Below the pieces are notes generated by a model. It searched no databases. It saw nothing but the letters and a program-made list of their open reading frames with translations, and was not told where the DNA came from. From Patescibacteria group bacterium (GTDB taxonomy: Bacteria > Patescibacteriota > Minisyncoccia > Moranbacterales > GWC2-37-73): 60,138 nucleotides of DNA. This document shows positions 2,321 through 54,098 of this stretch, one piece after another (within the stretch, counting starts at the first letter, position 1; each line of letters begins with the position of its first letter). Made by a program: the position numbers and the translations under genes. The DNA is taken from positions 1 through 60,138 of the forward strand of contig JAKLIO010000002.1 in NCBI GenBank assembly GCA_022709565.1. Reading direction: 5' to 3'.

Positions 2321-3643
2321 CTATTTTTGCCGCTTTGTCAATATGAAATCTTTTCGACCCAATTTGCGATGATAACCAATTGCAAACCGATGCGCTTCGT
2401 CCATAATCCGCTTTATTAAATTTTTATCATTGAAAACTTCCTTAACCTCATTTCTTGGATCATAAATCTTAAATCTTAAATCTAATTTATTGCGTTCCCT
2501 CCCTTTCGCCACTGCTCCAATATTAACTGCTAAACCTAATTCTTCGTGTAAAAGTTTTTCTGCCATATTTAGATGCCCTACTCCGCCGTCTAAAAGAATT
2601 AGGTCGGGCATAGTCCAATTGTTTCCAAATCTTCTAGCAAGCACTTCTCGCATCATACCAACATCATCACTGCCCGAAATAGTTTTGATTTTAAATTTAC
2701 GGTATTCTTTTTTGTTTGGCTCCCCGCCTTCGAAAACCACCATCGAACCAACCGCATTCGTACCGGAGATATTGGAAATATCATAGGCCTCAATTCTCGT
2801 ATTTTGTATCTCGTATTTTGTATTTAGTATTTTAGGTTCAAAATCTTTCGAAATCAATGCGATATCATGAATGTGATTTAGTGCAAAAACTTTATTTCTC
2901 AAATCCGCGGCTTTTTCAAATTCATGCTTTTTGGCCAACGCCTGCATTTCCTTTTCAAGTTTTTTTACTAAGCTTTTCTTTTTTCCTTCCAAAATCATTC
3001 TGATGCCGTGGATATTTTTTTGATAATCTTTCTCCGAAATCGCGCCGGCATATGGTCCGGGACAAAGCCCTATCTGAAAATCCAGACAGCCCTTTTCCGT
3101 TTCTTGCCTATTTGAATGAAAAGGAAAAATTTTACGGATTATTTTCAGCGCAATTTCCATTTGCTTTTTGGAAGTATAGGGACCAAAAACAGCTTTTAGG
3201 TTACCCGCCTCGCGTCGATGAGCGGTCATCTCCGCGAGTCGAGGCGGGTAGCTTTTAGCTTTTAGATTTTTAAAATCAAGATCTGTTGCCCGAAGGATTG
3301 TTATCCTCGGGAATTTTTCTTTCGTAACGACAAAGTATGAAAATGACTTATCGTCTTTAAGATCAATATTATATTTCGGCTGATGTTTTTTGATCAGATT
3401 GCTTTCCAATATCAAAGCTTCCAAAACCGAATCGGTCTGGAAAAATTTTATGTCTGCCACTTTGGGCATCATAGCTTCAATATGGTTTCTGGTTTCCGTG
3501 CCGCGAAAATATGAAGCTACCCGATTTCTGAGATTGGTCGCTTTGCCGATATACAATATTTTTCCGGCTTCATCCCTGAAAATATAGACTCCAGGCGCTG
3601 TTGGCAATTTATTCAGTTTTTCCTTAATTTTTGACATTTCCAT
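2321..3643 (-). CDS. uvrC: Excinuclease ABC subunit C. Short form that ends right after the DEAHRFAI motif, with no (HhH)2 tail. Carries two in-frame repeat insertions.
   Basis: N-terminal GIY-YIG motif (GVYIFRDEAGKILYIGKATNLRNRVASYF), a UVR motif (KHEFEKAADLRNKVFAL), an RNase-H-like region (IEAYDISNISGTNAVGSMVVF) and DEAHRFAIGYHRK near the C-terminus. Confidence 0.9.
   Translation of the reverse strand: MEMSKIKEKLNKLPTAPGVYIFRDEAGKILYIGKATNLRNRVASYFRGTETRNHIEAMMPKVADIKFFQTDSVLEALILESNLIKKHQPKYNIDLKDDKSFSYFVVTKEKFPRITILRATDLDFKNLKAKSYPPRLAEMTAHRREAGNLKAVFGPYTSKKQMEIALKIIRKIFPFHSNRQETEKGCLDFQIGLCPGPYAGAISEKDYQKNIHGIRMILEGKKKSLVKKLEKEMQALAKKHEFEKAADLRNKVFALNHIHDIALISKDFEPKILNTKYEIQNTRIEAYDISNISGTNAVGSMVVFEGGEPNKKEYRKFKIKTISGSDDVGMMREVLARRFGNNWTMPDLILLDGGVGHLNMAEKLLHEELGLAVNIGAVAKGRERNKLDLRFKIYDPRNEVKEVFNDKNLIKRIMDEAHRFAIGYHRKLGRKDFILTKRQK
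2797..2835. repeat. ATAC-periodic AT-rich repeat, in frame inside uvrC (peptide [12 protein letters not shown])
   Basis: The sequence tcgtattttgtatctcgtattttgtatttagtatt belongs to the same word family as 10207-10250, 11651-11700 and 53613-53650. Confidence 0.7.
3204..3248. mobile_element. 45-nt GC-rich palindromic element, copy inside uvrC (peptide PPRLAEMTAHRREAG)
   Basis: cccgcctcgcgtcgatgagcggtcatctccgcgagtcgaggcggg differs at 3 positions from the copy at 51864-51908. It is read in a different frame from the uvrA and uvrB copies. Confidence 0.85.
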
Positions 3644-3717
3644 ATAAACATGCTACATTTTTACTTTAGAAATTACAAGTTCACAAGTTATTTAAAAATA
3701 AAATTGGAGGAAGAATT

Positions 3718-4062
3718 ATGATCATCACGTTACCGCCTTTTTCGCAAAGAGGCACGAATGTAGTAATGAGGATAAAATTAATGATTGAGTTGGCAAATTT
3801 TTTTAAGGAACTAACAACTCAAATCGAATTTTCTGACAAGTTTTCCGATATTATTTTGTTCCATATTACTGGCAATGACAATGAAATAGACATCTGGAAT
3901 TTTGTTAAGAAGAAGAAAAATTTAATTGAAAAAAAATTAAACGGCCAGCCAGCGAAGGTTATTGCCGGCAAAAAAAGAATGATATTAAACCACCAGCAGG
4001 AGGAATACAATGGTAGCAGAAAGGAAAATACCAACACATCCTTATATAAGACCGTGTGTTGA
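3718..4062 (+). CDS. Hypothetical protein (114 aa)
   Basis: ORF with a strong SD (attGGAGGaagaattATG). It overlaps the start of the next ORF. No recognisable motif. Confidence 0.55.
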   Translation: MIITLPPFSQRGTNVVMRIKLMIELANFFKELTTQIEFSDKFSDIILFHITGNDNEIDIWNFVKKKKNLIEKKLNGQPAKVIAGKKRMILNHQQEEYNGSRKENTNTSLYKTVC

Positions 4063-4582: not shown

Positions 4583-7500
4583 CTACTTTCTGCCTAATAC
4601 ATCTTTTAGATATTTCGCTGTGTAGCTTTCTTTATGATATTTGATAATTTCTTCCGGCGGACCGGTCACAATGATGCGGCCGCCATTGTCTCCGCCTTCC
4701 GGGCCCATGTCAATGATCCAATCGGCGGTTTTAATCACATCCATATTGTGCTCAATCACGACCACCGTGTTGCCTGCGTCTACCAACCTATTCAGAACGT
4801 TCAATAATTTTTTAATATCGTCAAAATGCAGTCCAGTGGTCGGCTCGTCCAGAATATACAGCGTGTTACCGGTCGCCAATCTGGAAAGCTCGCTGGCCAG
4901 TTTTATTCTTTGCGCTTCTCCGCCGGACAGCGTGGTTGCGCTTTGTCCAAGTTCAATATAGCCCAAACCGACTTCTTCCAGCACTGCCAAAGGACCGTGA
5001 ATTTTTGGAAAAGCTTCAAAAAATTTCACGCCTTCAGAAACAGTCATTTTTAAAACATCATAAATATTTTTGCCTTTATATTTGACTTGCAAGGTTTCAC
5101 TGTTATATCTTTTTCCATTGCAAACATCGCAGGGCAGATAGACATCCGGCATAAATTGCATTTCAATTTTCAAAAATCCCTCCCCGTTGCAATTGTCGCA
5201 GCGTCCGCCAGGAATATTGAAAGAAAATCTGCCGGGACCATAGCCGCGCAGCTTGGCGTCTTTGGTCTGAGCAAACAATTCACGAATCGAAGTAAAAAAT
5301 CCTGTGTAAGTTGCCGGATTTGAGCGCGGTGTGCGCCCGATCGGCGATTGGTCAATCATAATTACCTTATCAATATTTTCAATCCCGACAATTTCTTTAT
5401 GCCGGCCTGGCGCATCCAAACTGCGGTGCAATTTGTTAGCCAGCGCTTTGTATAATGTTTCTTCAACCAGTGTTGATTTGCCGCTACCGGAAACTCCGGT
5501 CACACAGATAAAAACTTTGAGCGGAAATTCGGCCACAATATTTTTCAGATTATGTTCGCCCGCGCCGCGCACCACGATTCTTTTTTTCTTATTGGCATCG
5601 CGCCGAAACTTGGGAATTTCGATTTCCATTTCGCCGCGCAAATATTTTCCGGTTAAAGATTTTGGATTATTGATCACTTCGGTAGGCAATCCTTGCGCCA
5701 CGATTTCTCCGCCATGTTTGCCCGCTCCCGGTCCGATGTCCACCAGCCAATCCGCGCTGCGCATCATTTCTTCGTCATGTTCAATGACGATTAAGGTGTT
5801 GCCGATTTTTTGCAATTGGCGCAGCGCTTCCATAAGTTTTGAATTATCACGCGCGTGCAAGCCTATTGAAGGTTCGTCTAAAATATATAGGACGCCTACC
5901 AGCTGCGAACCGATCTGCGAAGCCAGGCGGATCCGCTGCGATTCTCCGCCGGACAATGAATAGGCAGCGCGTTGCAATGTCAAATATTCTAAGCCGACAT
6001 TATTGAGAAATTTTAAGCGCGCCACAATTTCTTTGAGAATCCGGCCGGCAATCATTTCCTCGCGCTGCGTCAATTGCAGTTTTTCAAAAAAATTCAAACA
6101 TTCGCGAACACTCAGCGTCGAAGCTTCGTAAATATTTTTCCCGCCGACCGTCACCAATAGCGCTTCTTTTTTGTATCTTGTTCCTTTGCAAGTCGAGCAC
6201 GGCTTTTGCGACATATATTTTTCAATGCCTTCGCGCACCGCATCTGATTCTGTTTTGAAATATCTTTCCTGCAAAAAACCGACCACACCCTGCCAAGTCA
6301 TATAAAATTTCCAATTGGTGCCGGTTTTGGTTTTGACGATGATGGGAATCTCCTCCCCGCCTCGCGTCGACGAGCGGTCGTTTCCGCGAGTCGAGACGGG
6401 CGCCTCATCTTCAGTTGCCATACTTTCATGCTCAGCTGTTCCATAGAGCAGCAAATCCATTTTCTTTTTTGACAAATCTCTAAGGCGCATATTGTCAGGA
6501 ATATTAAAATATCTGGCTGCAGACAAAATCACGCCGCCATAATAATTATTTTTCTTGAAATTCCAAGGCGCCAAGCCGCCTTCCGCCAGAGTCTTATTAT
6601 TGTCCGGCATGACTCTTTCAATATCTATTTCTTTTTTGAATCCCAATCCTTCACAGCCGCTGCAAGCACCAAACGGAGAATTAAAGGAAAATAAACGCGG
6701 TTCCAAATCGGGAAATTCAATATCGTGTATGGAACAAGACAATTTCTGATTAAAAATTTGAACCCCCTCTTTGCTTCTCCCCCTTTTCAAGGGGGAGATT
6801 GAGTGGGGGTCTTTCAGACTCACTATTTTCACTAGTCCCTCCGACATCTTCAGTGCTTTTTCCACGCCTTCAAAAATTCGGCTTAAATTTTCATCGCTAA
6901 TCTTTACTCTGTCGATTACCAAATCAATGCTATGTTTTTTGTAGCGTTCCAATTTAACGTCCTTAAAATCTTCCAATCTGCATAATTTACCGTCCACAAT
7001 CGCTTCGGAGAATCCGCGCTTCCACATATCATCCAAGAGCGCCAGATATTCCCCTTTTCTTTCGCGCACAATCGGTGAAAGAATTTCGATCTGAACACTG
7101 CGCGAAGCGCTTTCGTTTTTCCCTCTCTCCCCTTTAGGGAGAGAGTCGGTGAGAGGGTGATTAATTTCCAAAATCCGACTTACAATTTCATCTGTTGAAA
7201 GCTTGGAAATTTCCCGGCCGCAAACGGGACAATGCGGAATTCCGATCTTAGCATACAAAAGACGCAAATAGTCATGAATTTCCGTCACGGTTCCGACGGT
7301 TGAACGCGGATTGTGCGACGCCGCTTTTTGATCAATTGAAATTGCTGGCGAAAGTCCTTCAATATAATCAACATCCGGCTTATCCATCTGCCCTAAGAAT
7401 TGCCGCGCATAGCTCGACAAACTCTCCAAATATCTCCGTTGCCCCTCGGCAAAAATGGTATCAAAAGCCAGCGTAGATTTTCCTGATCCGGAAATTCCCG

Positions 7501-9348: not shown

Positions 9349-11547
9349 CTACTTTATCTGCAATTTCCTAAGCTGCGAAATTTCATCGCGAATAATTGCG
9401 GCGCGTTCAAATTGAAGCGCGCGCGAAGCGTCTTTCATCTCCCTTTCCTTTTGTTTGATGTATCCGGCAATATCCTCTAGCGACTCCAATCTAGTGAAGT
9501 CCGGTGCCGGCATCGGATTAATTTCATGATCCACAATGGATTTAATATTTTTCTTGATGGTTGTCGGTGTTATGCGATGTTTTTGATTATACTGCGCCTG
9601 TATTTTCCGCCTCCTGTTTGTTTCATCGATTGCGCGCCGCATCGAACCGGTTATGCTGTCGGCATACAAAATCACGCGCCCGCTTACATTTCTGGCCGCC
9701 CGTCCGATTGTTTGAATAAGTGAAGTTTCGCTGCGGAGAAATCCTTCTTTGTCTGCGTCCAAAACAGCCACCAAGGAAACTTCCGGCAGGTCCAAACCTT
9801 CGCGCAAAAGATTGACGCCCACCAAAACATCGAACTGCCCGCGCCGAAGTCCTTCCAAAATGCGGATGCGATCCAAAGTTTCCACGTCCGAATGCACATA
9901 TTCGCATTTTATTTTGTGCTCTTTCAAAAAATCCGACAGGTCTTCCGCCATTTTTTTTGTCAGTGTCGTGATCAAAACCCTCCCGCCTGCAACGCTATGC
10001 TGCATTTCATTAGTACTTTCTTTTGTTTGTTTCTTAGAGCCAACAACTTCATTATTTTTATTCAGAAGCGTAGCATTGCGGGCAGGTTCCTTTCTTTCAA
10101 TAACTTTTTCTATTTCACTTAAAACATCTTTTACTTGCCCCTTGGCTGACTTAACAACCAGCTCCGGATCCAGCAATCCCGTTGGACGAATGATTTGCTC
10201 CACGATATTGTATTTCGTATCTCGTATTTTGTATTTCGTATTTTTTGGTTTATTTATAATTTGCGATTTATAATTTGTTTGTTGTTTGTTGTTTGTATCT
10301 TGTGATTTGTCGTATTCATACGGTCCTGGCGTCGCCGAAGTAAAAATCAGCTGCTGAATGTGCTTTTCAAATTCCGCAAATTTGAGCGGGCGATTGTCAA
10401 ACGCGCTCGGCAATCTGAATCCATTCTCTACCAATGATTCTTTACGCGCTCGGTCACCATTGTACATCGCATTTAATTGCGGCACAGTCACGTGAGACTC
10501 ATCAATCACCAACAAAAAATCTCTTCCCCCGCTTCGCGTCGAGGAGCGGTCGTTTCCGCGAGTCGAGGCGAGAAAATAATCCATGAGAGTATAGGGCATT
10601 TCGCCGCTTTTCCGTTCGGTCAAATAGCGGGAATAGTTTTCAATCCCGTTGCAATAGCCGATTTCGCGCATCATTTCCAGATCCTGCTTCGTCCGACGCC
10701 CTAACCTTTCCGCTTCCAGCAATTTATTTTTCTTTTTTAACTCGGCGACCCTTTCTCGCAGCTCTTTCTCTATCTTATCCAACGCTTCTTGCATGACCGG
10801 CTCCGGCACCACGAAATGCTTGGCCGGATAGATCAAAGTTTTTTCGAGATTGCCCAGATTTTCACCTGTCAAAAAATCATATTCCTGAATGCGATCTACC
10901 TTTCCATTTTTCATTTCGATGCGCGTCACCACTTCCCGCCCGGTCGGCATTATTTCAAAAGTGTCACCAGTCACCCGGAATTTCCCCCGACTCAACAGAT
11001 CGCTTCTTTGAAATTGCAATTCAAGAAGTTCTTTCATTTTTTCTTCTCGTTTGAATTCATCGCCCAATGCAATTTCAAAACTGATATCGCGGTAATATTC
11101 CGGCGAACCCAAACCGTAGATACAGGAAACTGACGCTACAATAATAACATCGCTGCGCGAAAGCAAGGCTGAAGTGGCCGCATGGCGTAGCCGATCAATT
11201 TCATCATTAATTTGTGCTTCCTTCTCTATATATGTATCCGATGCGGCCAAGTAGGCTTCCGGCTGATAGTAATCGTAATAGGAAACAAAATATTCCACGG
11301 CATTCTTGGGAAAAAAGGTTCTCAGTTCCTGAACCAATTGCGCTGCTAAAGTTTTGTTGGGTGCGATAACGAGCGTGGGTTTTTGCACTTTTTGAATTAC
11401 GTTGGCAATCGTGAATGTTTTGCCGGATCCGGTCACACCCAAAAGCGTCTGAAATTTTTGCCCCCTTTTTATGCCTTCAACCAACTTCTCAATCGCCTGT
11501 GGTTGATCCCCTGCCGGTTTGAATTTACTGCTTAATTTAAATTTCAT
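9349..11547 (-). CDS. uvrB: Excinuclease ABC subunit B (732 aa), carrying three in-frame insertions
   Basis: Helicase motif I (GVTGSGKTF), DESH box ([11 protein letters not shown]), motifs V and VI ([27 protein letters not shown]...QTIGRAARN) and a C-terminal UVR motif ([16 protein letters not shown]). Confidence 0.95.
9982..10086. repeat. 105-nt insertion with imperfect terminal inverted repeats, inside uvrB
   Basis: The arms CCCGCCTGCAACGCTATGC (9982-10000) and GCGTAGCATTGCGGGCAGG (10068-10086) are complementary at 15 of 19 positions. They encode an extra segment just before the conserved [13 protein letters not shown]. Confidence 0.5.
10207..10315. repeat. ATAC-periodic, low-complexity AT-rich repeat in frame inside uvrB (peptide [12 protein letters not shown] plus a Q/N/K-rich tract)
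   Basis: attgtatttcgtatctcgtattttgtatttcgta followed by ttgtttgttgtttgttgtttg. Same word family as 2797-2835 and 53613-53650. Confidence 0.65.
10528..10572. mobile_element. 45-nt GC-rich palindromic element, copy inside uvrB (peptide [15 protein letters not shown])
   Basis: cccgcttcgcgtcgaggagcggtcgtttccgcgagtcgaggcgag has 3 mismatches to the copy at 51864-51908. Same orientation and frame as the uvrA copy. Confidence 0.9.
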
Positions 11548-11610: not shown

Positions 11611-11650
11611 GCCACTTGGCTTAAATTTTGAGTTTAGTTCAAATTTCATA

Positions 11651-11700
11651 ATTCGTATTTTGTATTTAGTATTCATACGAGATACCAAAGACTAGATACT
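11651..11700. repeat. Intergenic copy of the ATAC-periodic repeat family
   Basis: attcgtattttgtatttagtattcatacgagataccaaagactagatact uses the same words that are found in frame in uvrB, uvrC and tsaD. Confidence 0.6.
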
Positions 11701-28152: not shown

Positions 28153-28216
28153 CAAGCCGCTCAAGTATTAGTATATTTGTATTTCCTAAGAAGCTAATAA
28201 GCTAAAGCCTGATAAG

Positions 28217-31200
28217 CTACTTCTTGAACTCTCGGTATCCTGTTCCAGCTGGGATCAGGCGGCCGATGATCACGTTTTCTTTAAGGCCTCTGAGACGATC
28301 ATCTTTTCCGGTCACGGCGGCGTTAATCAAAACGCGGGCTGTTTCCTGGAAGGATGCGGCTGACAGGAACGATTCAGTTGAAAGAGCAACCTTGGTAATT
28401 CCCATAATCAGCTGCTCGCCAGTGGCTGGATCTTTCTTAGCTTTATGCGCGTCATCATTTTCTTCACGGAATTGATCCTTTTCAACAATGTCGCCCGGCA
28501 GAAGATCTGTGTCGCCGGCTTCCAAAACTTTGATGCGGCTCAGCATTTGGCGAATGATAACTTCAACATGTTTGTCATTGATGCCTTCGCCCTGCGCTGC
28601 GTAAATTTCCTGAATCTCGTTGATGATATATCTTTGGATTGCTTCTTGTCCCATGGTGGCATAAAGCTTCTTAAGATCAATATGTCCTTCGTTCAGCTGG
28701 GTGCCTTTGCCAATAAGCTGTCCTTTAGCAACAACAATGGTTGATTCGCTTGGAACTTGATATTCCACCATGTCTTTACCAGTGGTTTCAACTTTGATTG
28801 TAGTTGTTTTTTTATTCTCATTGACGATTTCCATAACCTTTCCGTCAACTTCAGAAATGACTGCTTCGCCTTTCGGTGGGCGAGCTTCAAAAATTTCTTC
28901 CACACGCGGCAGACCTTGGGTGATGTCTGTTCCCGCGACACCTCCAGTATGGAAGGTACGCATCGTCAGCTGTGTTCCCGGTTCACCGATAGCTTGCGCA
29001 GCCACAATTCCGACTGCTTGACCAATATTGACCAAGTTGCTGCGACCAAGGTCAGCGCCATAACAAGCGCGACAGATTCCTCTTTGGCTTTTGCAAGTGA
29101 TGACATTTCTGATTTTAACTTGTTTTACGCCCGCTTTGTCGACAGCTTGTCCGTCTTCCTTGGAAGCTAATGTGCCTTTTTTAACAATGACTTTTTTGGT
29201 CTTCGGATCAACAACATCTTCAACCAGGACGCGGCCTTCAACTCTGGCTGCAAAACTTAGTCCGATTCTTTCTGAATCTTCTTTGTAGATAAATCCCCCT
29301 TCAGTATCGCCGCAATCTTCTTCGCGAACAATAATGTCTTGAGCCACGTCAACGAGGCGGCGAGTCAGATATCCGGCAGTCGCGGTTCGAAGAGCGGTGT
29401 CAGCCATACCTTTTCTGGCTCCGTGAGTTGAAATGAAATATTCCAAAACATTGAAACCCTCTTTGAATGAGCTTTTTACTGGCAGTTCAATCGTTTCTCC
29501 AGTTGGTCCGGCCACGAGTCCTTTCATACCTTCCATCTGCACCACCACTGATTCTGAACCTCTGGCTTTGGAGTGCACCATAGTATAAACGCTGCCTTCA
29601 TGATCCAAGGAACTTTTCACGGCATCCGCAATAATGTTTTTTGTGCGATTCCAAATATCAATCACGCGGTTCTTTCTTTCTTCTTCAGTCAGGAGACCCA
29701 TCAGATATTGCTGGTTGATAGTCGCAACTTCTTCTCCGGCTTTTTTCATAGCTGGTGCTTTTTCCGGCGGAACTTGCAGATCATCCATACCCCAACTGAT
29801 TCCGCTGCAGCCAGCCATTTTGAATCCGAGCTGCTTGATGCGGTCGATGAACTGCGCAGTTTCTTCCTGTCCTTTTGTCATCAGAATGCGCGCTACCAGA
29901 TGTTTGATTTCTTTCTGAGTAAATTCTTCATTTATAAATCTGAATTCAGGCAGCAAGATATTATTAAGCATGATGCGCCCTACCGATGTTTCCAAAATTT
30001 CTTTTCCGATCTGAACTCTTATTTTTGCGTTCACAGCCACGTAATCCAATTGATGGGCCAAAATAGCTTCTTCAGGAGTCGCGAAAATTTTCCCTTCACC
30101 TTTAACTCCGTCTTTGATGTGAGTGATATAATAAATTCCCAACACAATATCTTTTGATGGAACAACGATCGGTTCTCCGGAAGCCGGTTTCAAAAGATTT
30201 TTGGAAGAAAGCATGATGTTGGCGCTTTCTTCGCGAGCTTGATCAGTCAGCGGCACATGCACAGCCATCTGGTCTCCATCGAAGTCAGCGTTGAAGGCAG
30301 TACAAACCATAGGATGAACCTGAATAGCTTTTCCTTCGATCAGCACCGGTTGGAAAGCCTGAATAGACAAGCGGTGCAGGGTCGGAGCGCGGTTCAAAAG
30401 AACATAGTGATGTTCGATGATTTCATCCAAAATTTCATAAGCTTCTTCGGCTTCCGCGTCCACCATTCGGCCGGCAGTTCTCACATTGTGCGCGAATTCT
30501 TTTTCAATAATTTTATTAATGATAAACGGTTTGAAAAGTTCGAGCGCCATTTTCTTCGGCAGTCCCGCTTGATGCAATTTCAGCTGCGGACCAACCACGA
30601 TCACGGAACGTCCGGAATAGTCAACGCGTTTTCCCAAAAGGTTTTGTCTGAATCTCCCCTGTTTGCCTTTGAGCGCGTCTGCGAGTGAGCGCAGCGGTCG
30701 TCTTTGTCCAGTGGAAGCGGCCACGGATGACTGACCTTTGCGGGCGCTGTTGTCAAACAAAGCGTCCACGGCTTCTTGCAGCATTCTTTTTTCATTTCTT
30801 GTAATAACTTCCGGCGCGCCTAAATCAATCAGTTTTTTCAAACGATTATTTCTGTTGATAATTCTGCGATACAAGTCATTGAGATCAGAAGTCGCAAAAC
30901 GTCCTCCGTCCAAAGCTACCATAGGACGCAGATCCGGCGGGATAACTGGAATCGCAGTCGGTAGCATCCATTCAAGTTGCAATCCGGCTTTTTTGAAACC
31001 CTGAAAAAGTTTCATGCGTTTGAAAAGTTTTTTCTTGTCGGATGTTTCCTCGTCTTCCAATTCTTTCTTAATCTTCTTGATCATCTTATCGATATTCATT
31101 TCGGAAAGCACATCGCGCACAGCTTCAGCACCAATACCGGCTGAAAATACTTGTCCGAAACGGGAAGACAGATTGAAATATTCCAATTCTGAAAGAACCT

Positions 31201-36265: not shown

Positions 36266-36447
36266 ACAATTAATACATTGTTTTTAAATTTTTATTCGCT
36301 ATTTTCCCTTAAAATAAGAAAAAGACGGGCAAATCACCCATCTCTTATTCGCATATATCAATTATAGCACTTTTTGAGATAAAAATCAATAGCTACTGTT
36401 TCTTTGCATTTTGTATTTCCTAAAAGCTAGAAGCTAGCAGCTATAAG

Positions 36448-36705
36448 CTACCCCATGTTCCATGCTTTGGCGACAGTTTGGACAATGCGGGAAGATGTCA
36501 CTCCGGAAGTTTGGCTTATTTCAGGAGTCACTTTTTTAATTTCACTTTTATCTATATTATTTTTTCTCAGCAGTTCATTGATTTTAGGCAGCAGCTGCTC
36601 ACTCAAAGAATACTCGCCAAGCCACTCCGAACTATCAACGACTTTATTGCCGTTTTTTAAAGTTAATCTTATATCGTTACCATTTAAAAATATTTGTAGA
36701 ATCAT
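36448..36705 (-). CDS. Small protein with weak resemblance to the TsaB N-terminal region
   Basis: 85 aa from the internal Met. LSEQLLPKINELLRKNNIDKSEIKKV...TSGVTSSRIVQTVAKAW loosely parallels the TsaB pattern (LLP.i..LL....l....dl..iav..GPGSFTGLRIG...AKGL). Confidence 0.35.
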   Translation of the reverse strand: MILQIFLNGNDIRLTLKNGNKVVDSSEWLGEYSLSEQLLPKINELLRKNNIDKSEIKKVTPEISQTSGVTSSRIVQTVAKAWNMG

Positions 36706-36816
36706 AATGTAAATTTCTAATTTATAATTTTTAATTTCTAAACAATTTCCAATGAACAAATTTCAAAATTCAAAAATTTAAGCATTGTTTGAAAATTAGA
36801 AATTGAAAATTGAAAA

Positions 36817-37611
36817 TTATTTTTGGACGTTAGTCCAATTAATATTCCACGGATCTGTTTTTCTGCCTGGCGCAATGTCTTTGTGTCCTAAAATATATTT
36901 TATAGAATATCTGTTTTTAAGCGTGACGATCAAACTATTAAGTGCGCTATATTGCTCGCTGGTAAACTTTCCATCTTCAGTATTCATCATTTCAATGCCG
37001 ATGGAAAACGCGTTCACACCGGTTCTGCCATCCGGAACTTTGCTCTCTCCCGCATGATAGGCGATATTTTTGTCCGCGACCAGCTGATATATTTTTCCTT
37101 CCCGATCAATCAGATAGTGCGTCGCTACTCCGTATTGTTTGTACTCATTAAGCAATCCGCTGACACTGAATGGCTCACTGCCCAAGGCATCATAAGAAGA
37201 ATGCACAATAATCGTATCAATTTTTCGGCCGGAAGATTTTTCAAATCCCCAAGACACAAATCTTTCGATAATTTTCGCAGTGTTTTTTATTTCCGACTGC
37301 TCGTCGTTTGTCTCCGTATCTTCTTTTTCCTGATCACTATTCACTGCATCTTGTTCGCTGTCTGCTGCTTGTTGTTCCTTGTCTGCTGGATTTTGTATGC
37401 TGTCTACTTTCTGTTGACTGCTGTATTCTGCCTGCTGGCTGTTGTCTACTGTTTCTTGTTCATTGTTCACTGATCCCTGTTCGCTGTTAACAATACTAAC
37501 GGTTTTTTTCTCAGAAAAAAAAGCACAGCCGGAAAAAACCGCCACAAACAAAACAATAAAACTAATAATAATTATTTTCTTCTTATCCATGATGTAACTA
37601 TTGTAACTCAC
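36817..37611 (-). CDS. N-acetylmuramoyl-L-alanine amidase (Amidase_2/PGRP fold), lipoprotein
   Basis: Lipobox FSGC, a low-complexity Q/E/D linker, then IDTIIVHSSYD...THYLIDREGKIYQLV...AYHAG...FSIGIEMMN...LGHKDIAPGRKTDPW. Confidence 0.8.
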   Translation of the reverse strand: MSYNSYIMDKKKIIIISFIVLFVAVFSGCAFFSEKKTVSIVNSEQGSVNNEQETVDNSQQAEYSSQQKVDSIQNPADKEQQAADSEQDAVNSDQEKEDTETNDEQSEIKNTAKIIERFVSWGFEKSSGRKIDTIIVHSSYDALGSEPFSVSGLLNEYKQYGVATHYLIDREGKIYQLVADKNIAYHAGESKVPDGRTGVNAFSIGIEMMNTEDGKFTSEQYSALNSLIVTLKNRYSIKYILGHKDIAPGRKTDPWNINWTNVQK

Positions 37612-47310: not shown

Positions 47311-48467
47311 ATTATTTGTTTTTTATGCTCTATCGCCTCCGCATAAACCGCCAGCATTTTTTCCGCTGAGGCGGAAGCAGTATATTTTTCCCGAGCAATT
47401 CTCGATGATTCAGCCGACATTTTCTGGCGCAGCGCTGCGTCATCCAAAAGTTTTTGCACAGCTTCTATAAATTTATTTTTTTCTTCCGCAGTCAAAAATC
47501 CATTCACATTTTCCTCCACTAAACTTTCAATACCGGTCGCTTTGACTGCCACAATTGGAAGACCGGAATACATAGCTTCAGTTATGATCATACCTTGCGT
47601 TTCCGATTTGGATGCATAGACAAAAATATCGCCGGCCGCATAATAATTCTTGATTTCCTCTGCTTCGACCAAACCGACGAAAATTATTTGCTGGTCTAAA
47701 TTTCTTTTTTGAGCTTCTTTTTCGAGTTCTGCCTTGAGATATCCATCGCCGACCAGCACGAATTTTGTTTTGGGATTTTTTTGCAAAACATCCGCCACCG
47801 ATTCAAAAAGAAAACTGATATTTTTTTCTTCCGTCAGGCGCGAAACCAACAGCAGCACAGTTTCATCATCTTTTATTTGATATTTTTCGCGGATTTTTTT
47901 TCGGTTTGAGCCGGAAAAACATTTTTCATCAATGCCGGTTGCCACCGGAAAAATTTTATTAACCACGCCCCAGTTTTTAAGGATTGGTTCAATTGACTGC
48001 GTCGGCACAATCACACTGTCAGCCTGATTGGCATATTTGACAGCTTTTTTAATTATCCAACCAGCTGTTAATTTGGACGGTAAAAATGGCACGAAATTGG
48101 TATATTTGTCATACAGCGTATGCCAAGTAAAGATCAAAGGGATATTTTTTTTCTTAGCCCATTTCATGGCGGCTGATCCCAGGAGATTCGGATGGTGCGA
48201 ATGAATAATGTCTAAATCAAGTTTTTCAATAATCCTATCCATTTTGCGTGAATATGGAATGCCCAACGGCAAACGGAATTTTATTTCAATATCCACTGAG
48301 AGATAACGAAAAACGTTTTTATTCGTATCTTGATAGTCGGAATAATTCGGAGCGAAAACAAAAACCGTGTGGCCACGTTTTTCAAATTCTTTGCGAAAAG
48401 TTTCCACCGACATCGGCACCCCATAGATATTCGGCAGATAATTATTGGTGAAAAAAGCAATACGCAT
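47307..48467 (-). CDS. Glycosyltransferase family 4 (GT-B)
   Basis: MRIAFFTNNYLPNIYGV start. The C-terminus has the EX7E-type region (SKSETQGMIITEAMYSGLPIVA). An alternative start lies at 48488. Confidence 0.8.
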   Translation of the reverse strand: MRIAFFTNNYLPNIYGVPMSVETFRKEFEKRGHTVFVFAPNYSDYQDTNKNVFRYLSVDIEIKFRLPLGIPYSRKMDRIIEKLDLDIIHSHHPNLLGSAAMKWAKKKNIPLIFTWHTLYDKYTNFVPFLPSKLTAGWIIKKAVKYANQADSVIVPTQSIEPILKNWGVVNKIFPVATGIDEKCFSGSNRKKIREKYQIKDDETVLLLVSRLTEEKNISFLFESVADVLQKNPKTKFVLVGDGYLKAELEKEAQKRNLDQQIIFVGLVEAEEIKNYYAAGDIFVYASKSETQGMIITEAMYSGLPIVAVKATGIESLVEENVNGFLTAEEKNKFIEAVQKLLDDAALRQKMSAESSRIAREKYTASASAEKMLAVYAEAIEHKKQII

Positions 48468-48469
48468 AC

Positions 48470-48600
48470 TAGAAATGACAAATTTCAAATTTCCAATGAC
48501 AAATCAATTTCAAAATCCAAAGTTCAAATTTTTGACATTTAGTCATTTGGATTTGATTAGAAATTCGTCATTTGTCATTTGAAATTACAAAAAATACTTA
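48470..48600. repeat. AT-rich imperfect palindrome of the CAAATGAC / TTCCAATGAC word family
   Basis: gaaatgacaaatttcaaatttccaatgacaaatcaatttcaaaatccaaag faces tttgacatttagtcatttggatttgattagaaattcgtcatttgtcatttgaaatt. Related words occur at 36745-36790 and inside tsaD (53295-53325 and 53555-53610). Confidence 0.6.
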
Positions 48601-51523: not shown

Positions 51524-51598
51524 TGGTACCGCTACGGGGAATCGAACCCCGGTTTACAGGATGAAAACCTGCTGTCCTAACCACTAGACGATAGCGGC
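51524..51598 (-). tRNA. tRNA-Glu (anticodon UUC), CCA encoded
   Basis: Hand-folded cloverleaf: acceptor GCCGCTA/TAGCGGT, anticodon stem GCAGG/CCTGT with loop TTTTCAT, T arm CGGGG-TTCGATT-CCCCG, 3' ACCA. Confidence 0.88.
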
Positions 51599-51606
51599 AA
51601 ATTATT

Positions 51607-51852
51607 CTATTTTAACATTTCTTTTATTTTCTTTCTTCCAGAGGAAGATTTCCAATATTTTTCAGCTTCCCTGGCAAGTTTTATGTGAATACATTTCTCA
51701 ATTATTTGCCAACTAAAATTTCCGAAGTTCTTTGTTGTTTTTACTTCTCCATGCGAATGCTCTTTTATCCTCCTTTCTAAATTATCAGAAAAACCGACGT
51801 AAGTTTTTGTTTTATTTTCATTAATCAGCAAATATACATAATAATATTGCAT
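51607..51852 (-). CDS. GIY-YIG nuclease-family small protein
   Basis: YYVYLLINENKTKTYVGFSDNLERRIKEHSHG...LAREAEKYWK matches the GIY-YIG/URI pattern. Its ATG abuts a tRNA-Glu 5' fragment and its stop lies 8 nt upstream of the intact tRNA-Glu. Confidence 0.8.
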   Translation of the reverse strand: MQYYYVYLLINENKTKTYVGFSDNLERRIKEHSHGEVKTTKNFGNFSWQIIEKCIHIKLAREAEKYWKSSSGRKKIKEMLK

Positions 51853-51931
51853 AACCTGCTGTCCCCGCCTCGCGTCGACGAGCGGTCGTTTCCGCGAGTC
51901 GAGGCGGGCTAACCACTAGACGATAGCGGCA
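51853..51931 (-). pseudogene. Duplicated 5' half of tRNA-Glu (nt 1-33), interrupted by the 45-nt palindromic element
   Basis: 51853-51863 plus 51909-51931 are identical to 51566-51599. A 45-nt insert lies between them. Confidence 0.85.
51864..51908. mobile_element. 45-nt GC-rich palindromic element, reference copy with base-exact boundaries
   Basis: cccgcctcgcgtcgacgagcggtcgtttccgcgagtcgaggcggg has terminal 9-bp inverted repeats CCCGCCTCG/CGAGGCGGG, G/C at 34 of 45 positions, and no stop codon in any of the six frames. Confidence 0.9.
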
Positions 51932-52811: not shown

Positions 52812-52910
52812 ATGATATTATCGTTTAACGATTGCATATGAGAACAGGCCAGAAATATGCCTACAACGCTTCTTTCAAGGGGAACTATATATTATAATAA
52901 TATCACACTT

Positions 52911-54098
52911 ATGTCAAATATACTAATCCTCGCTGTGGAAACATCTTGCGATGAAACCGCTGTTTCTGTCTTGCAATTTCAAGGCAATGATTTAACCATT
53001 CTCGCCAATGAGGTTTCTTCACAGGTAAAGCTGCATGCCAAATGGGGCGGTGTTGTGCCAAATTTGGCCGCACGGGAACATGTGAAAAATATTGTGCCTA
53101 TTTTTAAGCTGGCTTTAAAAAATGCCGGGGTTTCAATGCAAGATATTGATTTTATTGCGGTCACGGAAGGGCCTGGGCTTATTCCCGCTCTCATGGTTGG
53201 CAACAATTTCGCCAAAACACTGGCTTACCTTTGGGGAAAACCGCTGATTGGAATTCATCATATTGAAGGACACATCTACGCGAACTTTGTTCGCGAAATG
53301 ACAAATGATAAATTTCAAATGACAAAAGCTAAGAAGCTAATGACGCTGAAAGCTAATGAAGCTATTTTTCCTGTTTTGTGTTTGGTAGTTTCCGGTGGTC
53401 ATACGCAATTAGTCTTGATGAAAGACCATTTAAAATATGAAATTATCGGCCAAACATTGGATGACGCAGTCGGCGAAGCCTTTGATAAAGTGGCCAGAAT
53501 TTTAGGAATCGGCTATCCCGGAGGACCAGTCGTTGCCCAAAGAGCAATGGAATTTCCAATGACCAATGACCAATTTCCAAACAAATCACAAAAATCAAAT
53601 TCAAAATCTAAAGAATACGAAATACAAGATACAAGATACGAGATACAATTCCCGAGGCCTATGTTAAATAAGCAGGGATTTAATTTTTCTTTTTCCGGGC
53701 TGAAAACGGCAGTTTTGTATGAAACCAAAAAACACCCTGAATTATTAAGTGATAAAAAATATATTGCCGCTGTCTGTCATGAATTTCAGCAAGCCACAAT
53801 TGATGTTTTGATTGCCAAAACCTTGAAAGCTGCGGAAAAATTCAAGCCAAAAACGATTATGCTAGCCGGTGGTGTCAGCGCCAATAAAGAATTGCGAGAA
53901 CAAATGGGCGCAGCTATCTCAAAATCCATACCAAATACTAAATACTGTATACCAGATACTAGTCTGACCGGCGACAACGCCGCCATGATAGCTGCTGCTG
54001 CCGCTTTCCGCTGGCAAAAGATGAACGAATCTCAAAAGAAAAAAGCTCTGAATGGTTGGGAAAATCTCCAGCCATATGCGAATTTGAAATTAAAGTAA
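52911..54098 (+). CDS. tsaD: tRNA N6-adenosine threonylcarbamoyltransferase TsaD (Kae1/Gcp), with two in-frame insertions made of repeat sequence
   Basis: ILAVETSCDETAVSV, HAKWGGVVPNLAAREH, IAVTEGPGLIPALMVG, GIHHIEGH, LVVSGGHTQL, DDAVGEAFDKVARILG, FSFSGLKTAV, LAGGVSANKELR, TGDNAAMIA. ATG at 52911. Confidence 0.9.
   Translation: MSNILILAVETSCDETAVSVLQFQGNDLTILANEVSSQVKLHAKWGGVVPNLAAREHVKNIVPIFKLALKNAGVSMQDIDFIAVTEGPGLIPALMVGNNFAKTLAYLWGKPLIGIHHIEGHIYANFVREMTNDKFQMTKAKKLMTLKANEAIFPVLCLVVSGGHTQLVLMKDHLKYEIIGQTLDDAVGEAFDKVARILGIGYPGGPVVAQRAMEFPMTNDQFPNKSQKSNSKSKEYEIQDTRYEIQFPRPMLNKQGFNFSFSGLKTAVLYETKKHPELLSDKKYIAAVCHEFQQATIDVLIAKTLKAAEKFKPKTIMLAGGVSANKELREQMGAAISKSIPNTKYCIPDTSLTGDNAAMIAAAAAFRWQKMNESQKKKALNGWENLQPYANLKLK
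53291..53365 (+). repeat. tsaD insertion 1 (peptide REMTNDKFQMTKAKKLMTLKANEA)
   Basis: gaaatgacaaatgataaatttcaaatgacaaaagctaagaagctaatgacgctgaaagctaatgaagc combines CAAATGAC words (as at 48470-48600) with AAGCTAA words (as in the intergenic trailers at 28181-28216 and 36419-36447). Confidence 0.6.
53555..53650 (+). repeat. tsaD insertion 2 (peptide PMTNDQFPNKSQKSNSKSKEYEIQDTRYEIQ)
   Basis: ttccaatgaccaatgaccaatttccaaacaaatcacaaaaatcaaattcaaaatctaaag resembles 48490-48530. It is followed by the ATAC-periodic unit gaatacgaaatacaagatacaagatacgagatacaa. Confidence 0.65.

Follow-up and report, generated by a model that had tools for sequence, protein, structure and literature searches.

How does an essential enzyme come to carry protein segments whose DNA resembles the repeats lying between genes, and what are these segments? 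The question is raised by tsaD in a stretch of 60,138 nucleotides from a Patescibacteria group bacterium of the Moranbacterales (GenBank assembly GCA_022709565.1, contig JAKLIO010000002.1, positions 1 to 60,138; hereafter the window). A sequence-only reading had suggested that the gene holds two in-frame insertions assembled from the genome's intergenic repeat words. We find that both inserts are made of short arrays of 7-nt units placed in loops of the enzyme, that the same arrays are dispersed elsewhere in the window, and that the loop contents turn over among relatives. Most probably, the tsaD inserts are chains of dispersed heptamer cassettes, tolerated in permissive loops and renewed by copy-in together with local amplification. 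All statistics given below cover this 60-kb window and 59 further loci.

52911 to 54098, plus strand: tsaD, encoding tRNA N6-adenosine threonylcarbamoyltransferase, 395 amino acids (aa), with an intact catalytic core.

The open reading frame (ORF) 52857-54098 encloses tsaD, and the start common to the orthologues (MSNILIL) fixes the ATG at 52911 and the product at 395 aa. Pfam PF00814 (TsaD/Kae1/Qri7) is matched along the full length of this product (E 9e-84; 281.7 bits against a cut-off of 24.8), and TsaD structures in the PDB are matched at E 1e-74. When aligned by HMMER with the solved TsaDs of Aquifex (8iey), Salmonella (3zet) and E. coli (4ydu), it shows two breaks, one at about 130-151, after HIEGHIYANFV, and the other at about 215-245, between GGPVVAQRAME and FPRPML. 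The sequence-only reading was thus right that a 395-aa TsaD has its conserved blocks interrupted twice, and the ORF, peptides and DNA strings that it quoted are exact. H117 and H121 of the HxxxH metal site and D355, the C-terminal Asp of the GDN motif, are invariant columns among 120 orthologues. An AlphaFold (AF2) model built from the alignment of these orthologues has a mean predicted local distance difference test score (pLDDT) of 88.5 and a predicted TM score of 0.87; pLDDT below 50 is confined to residues 131-145 and 223-238, and DSSP assigns coil to 127-154 and 214-249. Foldseek places the model with 3zet_B/4ydu (Salmonella/E. coli TsaD) at a target-normalised TM score of 0.90, in the ASKHA two-lobe fold. 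In the predicted structure, both inserts are in floppy surface loops around an intact enzyme core, so that the check suggested by the sequence-only reading, whether the insertion points are loops, has a positive outcome in the model. The frame is open through the inserts in all of the more than 120 orthologues. An intein, an intron or another removed segment seems unlikely, as no such motifs were found, neither stretch is long enough, and every orthologue stays in frame.

The inserts resolve into the following cassettes.

53295 to 53326, plus strand: left cassette of insert 1, AAATGAC-type array GAAATGACAAATGATAAATTTCAAATGACAAA, peptide EMTNDKFQMTK (Tandem Repeats Finder, period 7, 4.4 copies).
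53327 to 53363, plus strand: right cassette of insert 1, AAGCTAA-type array, peptide AKKLMTLKANEA (alignments to 28176-28222 and 36412-36455).
53553 to 53582, plus strand: cassette a of insert 2, ATTTCCA/ATGACCA array, peptide FPMTNDQFPN (Tandem Repeats Finder, period 7).
53583 to 53612, plus strand: cassette b of insert 2, degenerate A-rich AAATCNN stretch, peptide KSQKSNSKSK (read from the sequence).
53613 to 53648, plus strand: cassette c of insert 2, RATACRA array, peptide EYEIQDTRYEIQ (Tandem Repeats Finder, period 7).

Insert 1 (E129-A151, 53295-53363) is built of two cassettes of 32 and 37 nt and insert 2 (F215-Q246, 53553-53648) of three, of 30, 30 and 36 nt, all in a 7-nt register. 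Tandem Repeats Finder (TRF), which was used for array calling in both inserts, reports period 7 for AAATGAC (4.4 copies, 53296-53326) in insert 1, where an AAGCTAA-type stretch follows at 53326-53364, and for CCAATGA (2.7 copies, 53556-53574) and ATACAAG (3.9 copies, 53622-53648) in insert 2, so that the unit types of the inserts are AAATGAC, AAGCTAA, ATGACCA and RATACRA. Because 7 and 3 have no common factor, the codon register shifts from one heptamer to the next until every frame has been used, and the peptides repeat with a period of 7 residues (e.g., MTNDKFQ, YEIQDTR); throughout the AAGCTAA words of insert 1, phasing keeps TAA out of frame. Cassette b, which has the lowest pLDDT (223-238), is identical in the relative L037 and missing from L041 and L056, while cassette c overlaps the native K-Y-E-I strand ahead of FPRPM and is also found in alleles whose loops are otherwise "empty". 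The inserts fold no better than shuffled sequences (z 0.07 and 0.78), and the coding copies are therefore single arms. The "words" of the sequence-only reading are thus discrete heptamer cassettes of about 30-36 nt, present in tsaD as single arrays and not as palindromes.

Two further observations concern the gene itself. A 71-aa antisense ORF (53513-53728, minus strand) spans insert 2; it owes its existence solely to the lack of stop codons on either strand of the heptamer arrays and is likely to give rise to false gene calls. Another period-7 stretch (ATACTAA, 4.9 copies, 53928-53961) lies in a conserved, confidently folded region, IPNTKYCIPDTS, before the catalytic GDN, and because Y345 and P348 are near-invariant, the periodicity there overlies native sequence.

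Arrays of this period are strongly over-represented. The window contains 22 period-7 arrays against 2.7 expected (about 8-fold), the expectation being drawn from 30 third-order Markov simulations after removal of redundant rows, and other periods are near expectation except for period 12 (7 vs. 1.5). Among 228 arrays in 27 Moranbacteria loci (184 kb), 75 have period 7 and 21 have period 14. The lengths of the period-7 arrays in these loci have their mode at 30-32 nt (24 of the 75) and fall sharply beyond 36 nt, unlike the outcome of open-ended slippage. A bias in orientation or stop codons of coding arrays went the expected way, 18 vs. 9, but was not significant, and it was scored on crude ORF calls in a set of loci weighted toward tsaD.

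The same cassettes recur in the window, between genes and within other genes.

48465 to 48592, minus strand: long AT-rich intergenic hairpin with arms of AAATGAC/AATTTCA arrays (inverted repeat I5/I6), the paired form of the left cassette of insert 1.
28181 to 28219, minus strand: AAGCTAA-type cassette directly adjoining rpoC (from the sequence, the ORF end at 28217 and alignment).
36419 to 36450, minus strand: AAGCTAG heptamer array adjoining ORF 36448-36759 (TRF period 7, 4.4 copies).
10207 to 10310, minus strand: in-frame insertion of composite make-up in uvrB; its final part is the ATAC array also found at the end of insert 2 of tsaD (alignment, TRF).
2795 to 2833, minus strand: ATAC heptamer array in frame in uvrC (alignment, TRF).
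11641 to 11675, no strand assigned: intergenic ATAC-type array upstream of uvrB, the sole intergenic ATAC copy among those compared.

Insert 1 matches the intergenic palindrome at 28 of 32 nt (48472-48503) and, on the opposite strand, at 16 of 16 nt (48571-48586), as had been claimed from the shared words; the left cassette and the intergenic copy have a common start, GAAATGACAAAT, with unrelated flanks before it. This hairpin is far more stable than expected (minimum free energy −31.7 kcal/mol, z −3.8, none of 200 shuffles as stable), and a second intergenic hairpin, at 36735-36830, has a z of −3.2. Alignments of the right cassette to the trailer of rpoC (28176-28222) and to 36412-36455 uphold the link drawn earlier between insert 1 and the AAGCTAA words of these two trailers, and the fit is especially close for the version in L037, CTAAGAAGCTAAT(G)AAGCTAAAGCCT..AAGCTA. 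On the minus strand, the TAG stop codon of rpoC (28217-28219) is the final AAGCTA word of the adjoining cassette, and the TAG stop of ORF 36448-36759 (36448-36450) is likewise supplied by the adjoining AAGCTAG array, so these trailer cassettes appear to define the 3′ ends of both. The fraction of 9-mers of insert 1 that are also found in the window's intergenic DNA is 0.48, compared with a mean of 0.15 for coding windows, placing insert 1 in the top 0.4% of them; none of 1868 AT-matched windows reaches this value, and AT-rich low complexity is thus not sufficient to account for insert 1. The end of insert 2 matches uvrB at 33 of 36 nt (10207-10242) and also uvrC (2804-2832), both arrays being in frame and in sense orientation, and UvrB is 732 aa long against a profile of 653 positions. 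That insert 2 ends in an ATAC-periodic unit had been stated correctly, but this array is largely native or coding, and its other copies in the window are mostly in genes.

Comparison of relatives indicates that both loops are filled in many ways. In 36 genome loci, site 1 contains 6-53 and site 2 contains 14-82 extra residues, with a recurring peptide vocabulary at both sites (ISNFKFQ, SNDQF, IENCELKIENS, KLMxLK, YEIQDTKY). The inserts are not a conserved part of TsaD, as the loops are short in TsaDs from outside the Candidate Phyla Radiation (CPR), namely from one Persephonella and one Myxococcales, and in orthologues at 73-80% identity site 1 has a loop of 4-5 residues and site 2 only the 12-residue ATAC stretch. 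More generally, orthologues that are 72-90% identical have loops that are empty, filled otherwise, or with one cassette exchanged. Empty site-1 loops (4-5 residues; GVKSKVI, GIDTKIK) are present in P0009, P0042, P0015, P0019, P0020, P0023 and P0027. The "empty" alleles L041 and L056 keep the ATAC array at site 2 (KYDIRDTKYKIQ, AYEIRDTKYEIR), so that site 2 of the window TsaD has gained, on balance, only about 20 residues; the strand before FPRPM, encoded by ATAC units here, reads K-L-E-I-K in other CPR. The sequence-only reading had concluded that the enzyme tolerates composite insertions of otherwise intergenic sequence. This is supported, as neither of the two outcomes that it named as refuting was obtained, the one on AT-rich low complexity being judged on insert 1.

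The exchanges among relatives are combinatorial. P0005/L037, with 91% DNA and 90% protein identity to the window, shares insert 2 and the right cassette of insert 1 and has a different, longer left cassette, whereas in P0010/L040 (76% DNA identity) both cassettes of insert 1 stand at the same codons and site 2 holds a different short array. P0018/L057 joins the left cassette of the L037 type to the right cassette of the window, and P0012/L059 joins the window's left cassette to another right part, so that all four left-by-right combinations are found for insert 1. The right cassette stands at the same codon in L037, L040 and L057, and the right junction (…AATGAAGCT|ATTTTTCCT) is identical in all carriers. 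In the sister pairs L040/L056 and L057/L058, 5-6 native codons are replaced by the composite with no target duplication. The ATTTCCA/ATGACCA cassette occupies site 1 in L037 and L013 and site 2 in L009, L015 and L006. A different kind of change is seen in L001, in which site 1 is the loop of L038 with (AAAGTCA) expanded by exactly 21 nt, i.e., three units.

On a core tree of TsaD, calculated with the insert columns removed, the window TsaD pairs with P0005, P0010 is sister to the empty-loop P0042 (SH-aLRT 98), and P0018 is nested inside a clade of empty-loop alleles (SH-aLRT 93), so that the right cassette is found on three separate parts of the tree. The approximately unbiased (AU) test rejects a single clade for the three carriers of the left cassette (p 0.003), a group that was named after the tree had been seen. 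The shared cassettes are also better conserved than the gene around them. Between the window and L040, insert 1 is identical at 69 of 72 nt (about 96%), compared with 75.5% for the rest (Fisher p 1e-5), and at 23 of 24 third codon positions, compared with 53% (p 2e-5). Third positions are likewise identical at 32 of 32 in insert 2 between the window and L037 (81% elsewhere, p 0.003) and at 13 of 13 in the ATAC array between the window and L001 (62%, p 0.003). Conservation above that of the host gene argues against a freely drifting neutral loop and, as far as such comparisons go, suggests that the cassettes were copied in recently, that gene conversion is still continuing, or that the DNA as such is under constraint. 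The raised identity to L040 is limited to the cassette, with the flanking codons diverging as usual, and transfer of alleles by long homologous tracts, which we also considered, is therefore unsupported.

Public metagenomes contain the same locus. Positions 53150-53707 are reproduced without difference in contigs of two studies, X1 (anaerobic digester, 2016) and X3 (activated sludge, 2022), and a protein identical to the window TsaD is on record (P0004). There are no indels over the inserts in contigs of four runs (2016-2024), although contigs drop rare variants, and a related strain in X6 has 50 nt in place of 101 nt of insert 2, which makes it shorter by 51 nt and keeps the frame. In four metagenomes, the cassettes show depth spikes and unrelated loose ends; over the ATTTCCA/ATGACCA cassette of insert 2 contig depth rises 5-6-fold in X1 and X3 (in X1 from about 30 to 160-175), with many unrelated flanks. 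An exact 20-mer of the right cassette, GCTAAGAAGCTAATGAMGCT, is found in 14 public metagenome contigs, of which one is tsaD and one or two have it in other ORFs, while in most it lies in non-coding DNA, in AAGCTAA-type hairpin arms or just past terminators.

Several other repeats were seen alongside these cassettes. In relatives, tsaD has a third insertion site after VLYE.KK (L013, L014 and L017; the same site in L015 and L029), holding perfect in-frame 35-nt palindromes (gggagctcaactccc-acaaa-gggagttgagctccc; ggaggttcaacctcc-attaa-ggaggttgaacctcc) or an (AGTTACG)n array. Site 1 of L008 and L030 has a GC-rich hairpin (gcccaaggc-ggacca-gccttgggc; peptide LRPRRTSLGLAIS) nested in a heptamer array, and site 1 of L004, L009, L013, L017 and L024 has whole palindromic array pairs in frame (ISNF..., ...IENCELKIENS), the reverse arm of which reads TGT where pure (TTGAAAA)n would give an in-frame TGA. 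In L038, a gene for an rve-family integrase of an insertion sequence (2755-3723) lies between tsaD and valS, which are adjacent in the window. A GC-rich palindrome of about 46-48 nt is present in the window at 3202-3249, 6354-6401, 10526-10573 and 51862-51909. It is in frame in uvrC (PPRLAEMTAHRREAG), where it adjoins an (AAAGCTA)3 heptamer array, and in uvrA and uvrB, with the same 13-residue peptide in the latter two. The fourth copy (51862-51909) interrupts a duplicate of the 5′ part of tRNA-Glu and lies just upstream of a GIY-YIG-like ORF of 81 aa (51607-51852), which is adjoined by the intact tRNA-Glu (51524-51598). UvrC itself (2321-3643, minus strand) has only 440 aa, compared with profiles of about 570-600 positions, and the C-terminal part of the profile is unmatched. 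Longer dispersed repeats (43777-44064/50322-50609; 45050-45205/51395-51550/59706-59796), at 85% and 79% identity, include conserved elements trailing tRNA genes.

We hypothesize that each cassette, of about 30-36 nt and 4-5 copies of a 7-nt unit, would come from a repeat population typical of Moranbacteria genomes. Between genes, such arrays stand as inverted pairs that form long AT-rich hairpins, or as trailers adjoining stop codons, whereas inside genes single arrays would persist only where the protein tolerates them, in surface loops, and only in stop-free frames, to be translated as disordered hydrophilic peptides with a 7-residue period. The TsaD loops 127-154 and 214-249 would be permissive sites of this kind, in this lineage filled, refilled and partly exchanged by cassette copy-in, with local amplification in 21-nt steps alongside. 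The peptides are presumably translated and near-neutral for TsaD function, and the cassettes may arrive by templated copying or a gene-conversion-like process, beyond slippage alone. The inserts, in short, look like tolerated repeat DNA and not like working parts of the protein.

A number of points weigh against this interpretation. We found neither a target-site duplication nor a terminal inverted repeat nor an associated transposase, and "mobile" therefore rests on distribution. A single clade of the four carriers of the right cassette is not rejected by the AU test (p 0.14), so that an ancestral right cassette with repeated loss is formally possible. The pairs compared for conservation were picked for a recognizable shared cassette and are biased toward high cassette identity, BLAST E-values between tandem arrays overstate significance as the information sits in one 7-mer, and cassette copy numbers within this genome are known for 60 kb only. 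The first part of insert 2, said earlier to resemble 48490-48530 and 36745-36790, does weakly match 48488-48522 and 36744-36755 (E 0.02-0.3), but its intergenic 9-mer sharing does not exceed that of AT-matched coding DNA (31% of the controls equal it). Finally, the tsaD stretch was in none of the RNA runs searched, so that translation of the inserts is presumed.

Alternatively, the loops might have grown by pure in-situ slippage, independently and on local 7-nt seeds, their likeness being convergence under AT bias and heptamer slippage. Heptamer simple-sequence repeats are over-represented in many bacteria, possibly via polymerase slippage (PMC4692102), and this general excess, the three-unit step between L038 and L001, and the overlap of the ATAC array with native K-Y-E-I codons even in empty alleles would all fit such an origin. 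We regard it as unlikely, however, since composites with identical ends recur at the same codon while sister lineages have empty loops, a cassette is swapped for an unrelated one between 91%-identical genes, and the AAGCTAA composite, which is non-periodic over about 35-40 nt, is also found in the rpoC trailer and in 13 contigs other than tsaD. Array lengths that peak instead of decaying, and contigs of four samples from 2016-2024 that have no unit-number variants, argue in the same direction. About equally unlikely, in our opinion, is a function at the DNA or RNA level, by which the cassettes would be cis-acting sites (protein-binding arrays, uptake or recombination signals, or RNA elements) kept by nucleotide selection and merely tolerated by the protein. 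This would explain why synonymous positions are conserved well above the host gene (the 23/24, 32/32 and 13/13 third positions above), why a limited heptamer vocabulary is common to species whose TsaDs are only about 55-65% identical, why length is nearly fixed at 30-32 nt, and why intergenic copies fold stably into hairpins where genes end. The high identity can equally well result from gene conversion or from copying-in of recent date, however; close relatives have no cassettes at the same loops, the TsaD copies do not fold, and to our knowledge no binding protein or phenotype is associated with the cassettes.

It is very improbable that the inserts are protein-level adaptations, such as lineage-specific functional extensions contacting partners or tRNA in a reduced t6A machinery. 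Most Moranbacteria orthologues do have both sites expanded, and the inserts stay in frame, but neither length nor sequence is conserved even at 75-90% identity, pLDDT is below 50 within the inserts, unrelated proteins and non-coding DNA contain the same sequences, and empty-loop alleles are common. Repeats are also prone to assembly errors, and the window comes from a metagenome-assembled genome, so mis-assembly through repeats or a pseudogene copy might be suspected; the chance of this is negligible given the identical stretch in contigs of two studies, the identical protein P0004, the 90% orthologue with the same insert 2, the open frame and the intact catalytic residues.

A bolder proposal is one that we hold to be possible but doubtful: Moranbacteria may have an active, sequence-specific process that writes or copies cassettes of about 31 nt (about 4.4 copies of one heptamer, from a small shared vocabulary) into arrays already present or next to them, with nucleotide-precise site preference. 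On this view, at least three lineages would each have acquired the same composite independently, and at the identical tsaD codon, and its DNA would have been kept at about 96% while the host gene fell to 76% identity, either by continuing gene conversion from master copies or by selection on the DNA, e.g., as a binding or uptake signal. Such a process may be the same as the one that makes the short tandemly repeated repetitive sequences (STRR) and small dispersed repeats (SDR) of cyanobacteria.

The closest known counterparts are the Rickettsia palindromic elements (RPE; Ogata et al. 2000, 2002, summarized in PMC10969869), a dispersed family with intergenic copies and with in-frame copies in unrelated housekeeping genes, translated where the fold tolerates it, and with no transposase attached (PMC10969869). 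The cassettes described here share the dispersal, intergenic as well as in frame in unrelated genes, and, presumably in tsaD, the translation. By contrast, RPEs are palindromes of about 100-150 bp with a conserved peptide, whereas in tsaD 30-36-nt arrays are strung together and lack hairpin potential, and only the intergenic pairs fold (z −3.8 and −3.2); the host belongs to another phylum with another composition, and the tsaD cassettes turn over much faster, being swapped between 91%-identical genes. A second parallel is with cyanobacteria, in which SDRs are said to be nested in the heptanucleotide STRRs of Calothrix and Nostoc, as Elhai et al. reportedly described in 2008 (Genome Res 18:1484; see also PMC4692102). 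Similarly, short tandem 7-nt arrays are scattered here (by TRF at 53296-53326, 53556-53574 and 53622-53648), period 7 is over-represented in the window and in 184 kb of relatives, and a palindrome is nested in an array in L008/L030; the ATGACCA unit is, we take it, the reverse complement of STRR2 (TTGGTCA). STRRs have been described mainly as intergenic, whereas the present arrays are AT-rich, lie in frame in essential enzymes at recurrent loops, and belong to a CPR host, CPR genomes being about 1 Mb or less. The intergenic forms (48465-48592 and 36735-36830) are hairpins at gene ends, like repetitive extragenic palindromes (REP), their mosaics (BIME) or terminator-like miniature inverted-repeat transposable elements (MITE), but we saw neither terminal inverted repeats nor target duplications nor a RAYT-type partner, the arms consist of tandem heptamers, and each coding copy corresponds to one arm. 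Tandem 7-nt units are also a feature of phase-variable contingency loci, such as the Haemophilus HMW1A promoter; the arrays here differ in being short, degenerate, of near-fixed length and in frame, and are probably not on/off switches. We would therefore place the tsaD cassettes, by analogy, beside the RPEs and the cyanobacterial heptamer repeats, as probable members of neither family. Our literature search retrieved no paper on heptamer or palindromic in-frame repeats in CPR/Patescibacteria, and what appears to be new in tsaD is the recurrent use of the same two loops, the combinatorial exchange of cassettes, and conservation above that of synonymous sites.

In-frame "selfish" repeats of essential genes are a textbook subject only for Rickettsia, and heptamer repeats have been a cyanobacterial curiosity; here both are combined in reduced CPR genomes. 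Repeat-derived loops inflate or perturb protein lengths, alignments, structure prediction and phylogenetic markers in CPR, and stop-free arrays create antisense and extended ORFs that are a hazard for annotation. At the same time, the inserts provide a natural map of where TsaD and other enzymes are permissive. Their fixed length, recurrence at one codon and supra-synonymous conservation point to a novel DNA transaction, and since filled and empty alleles are abundant in public metagenomes, its mechanism can be approached by comparative genomics.

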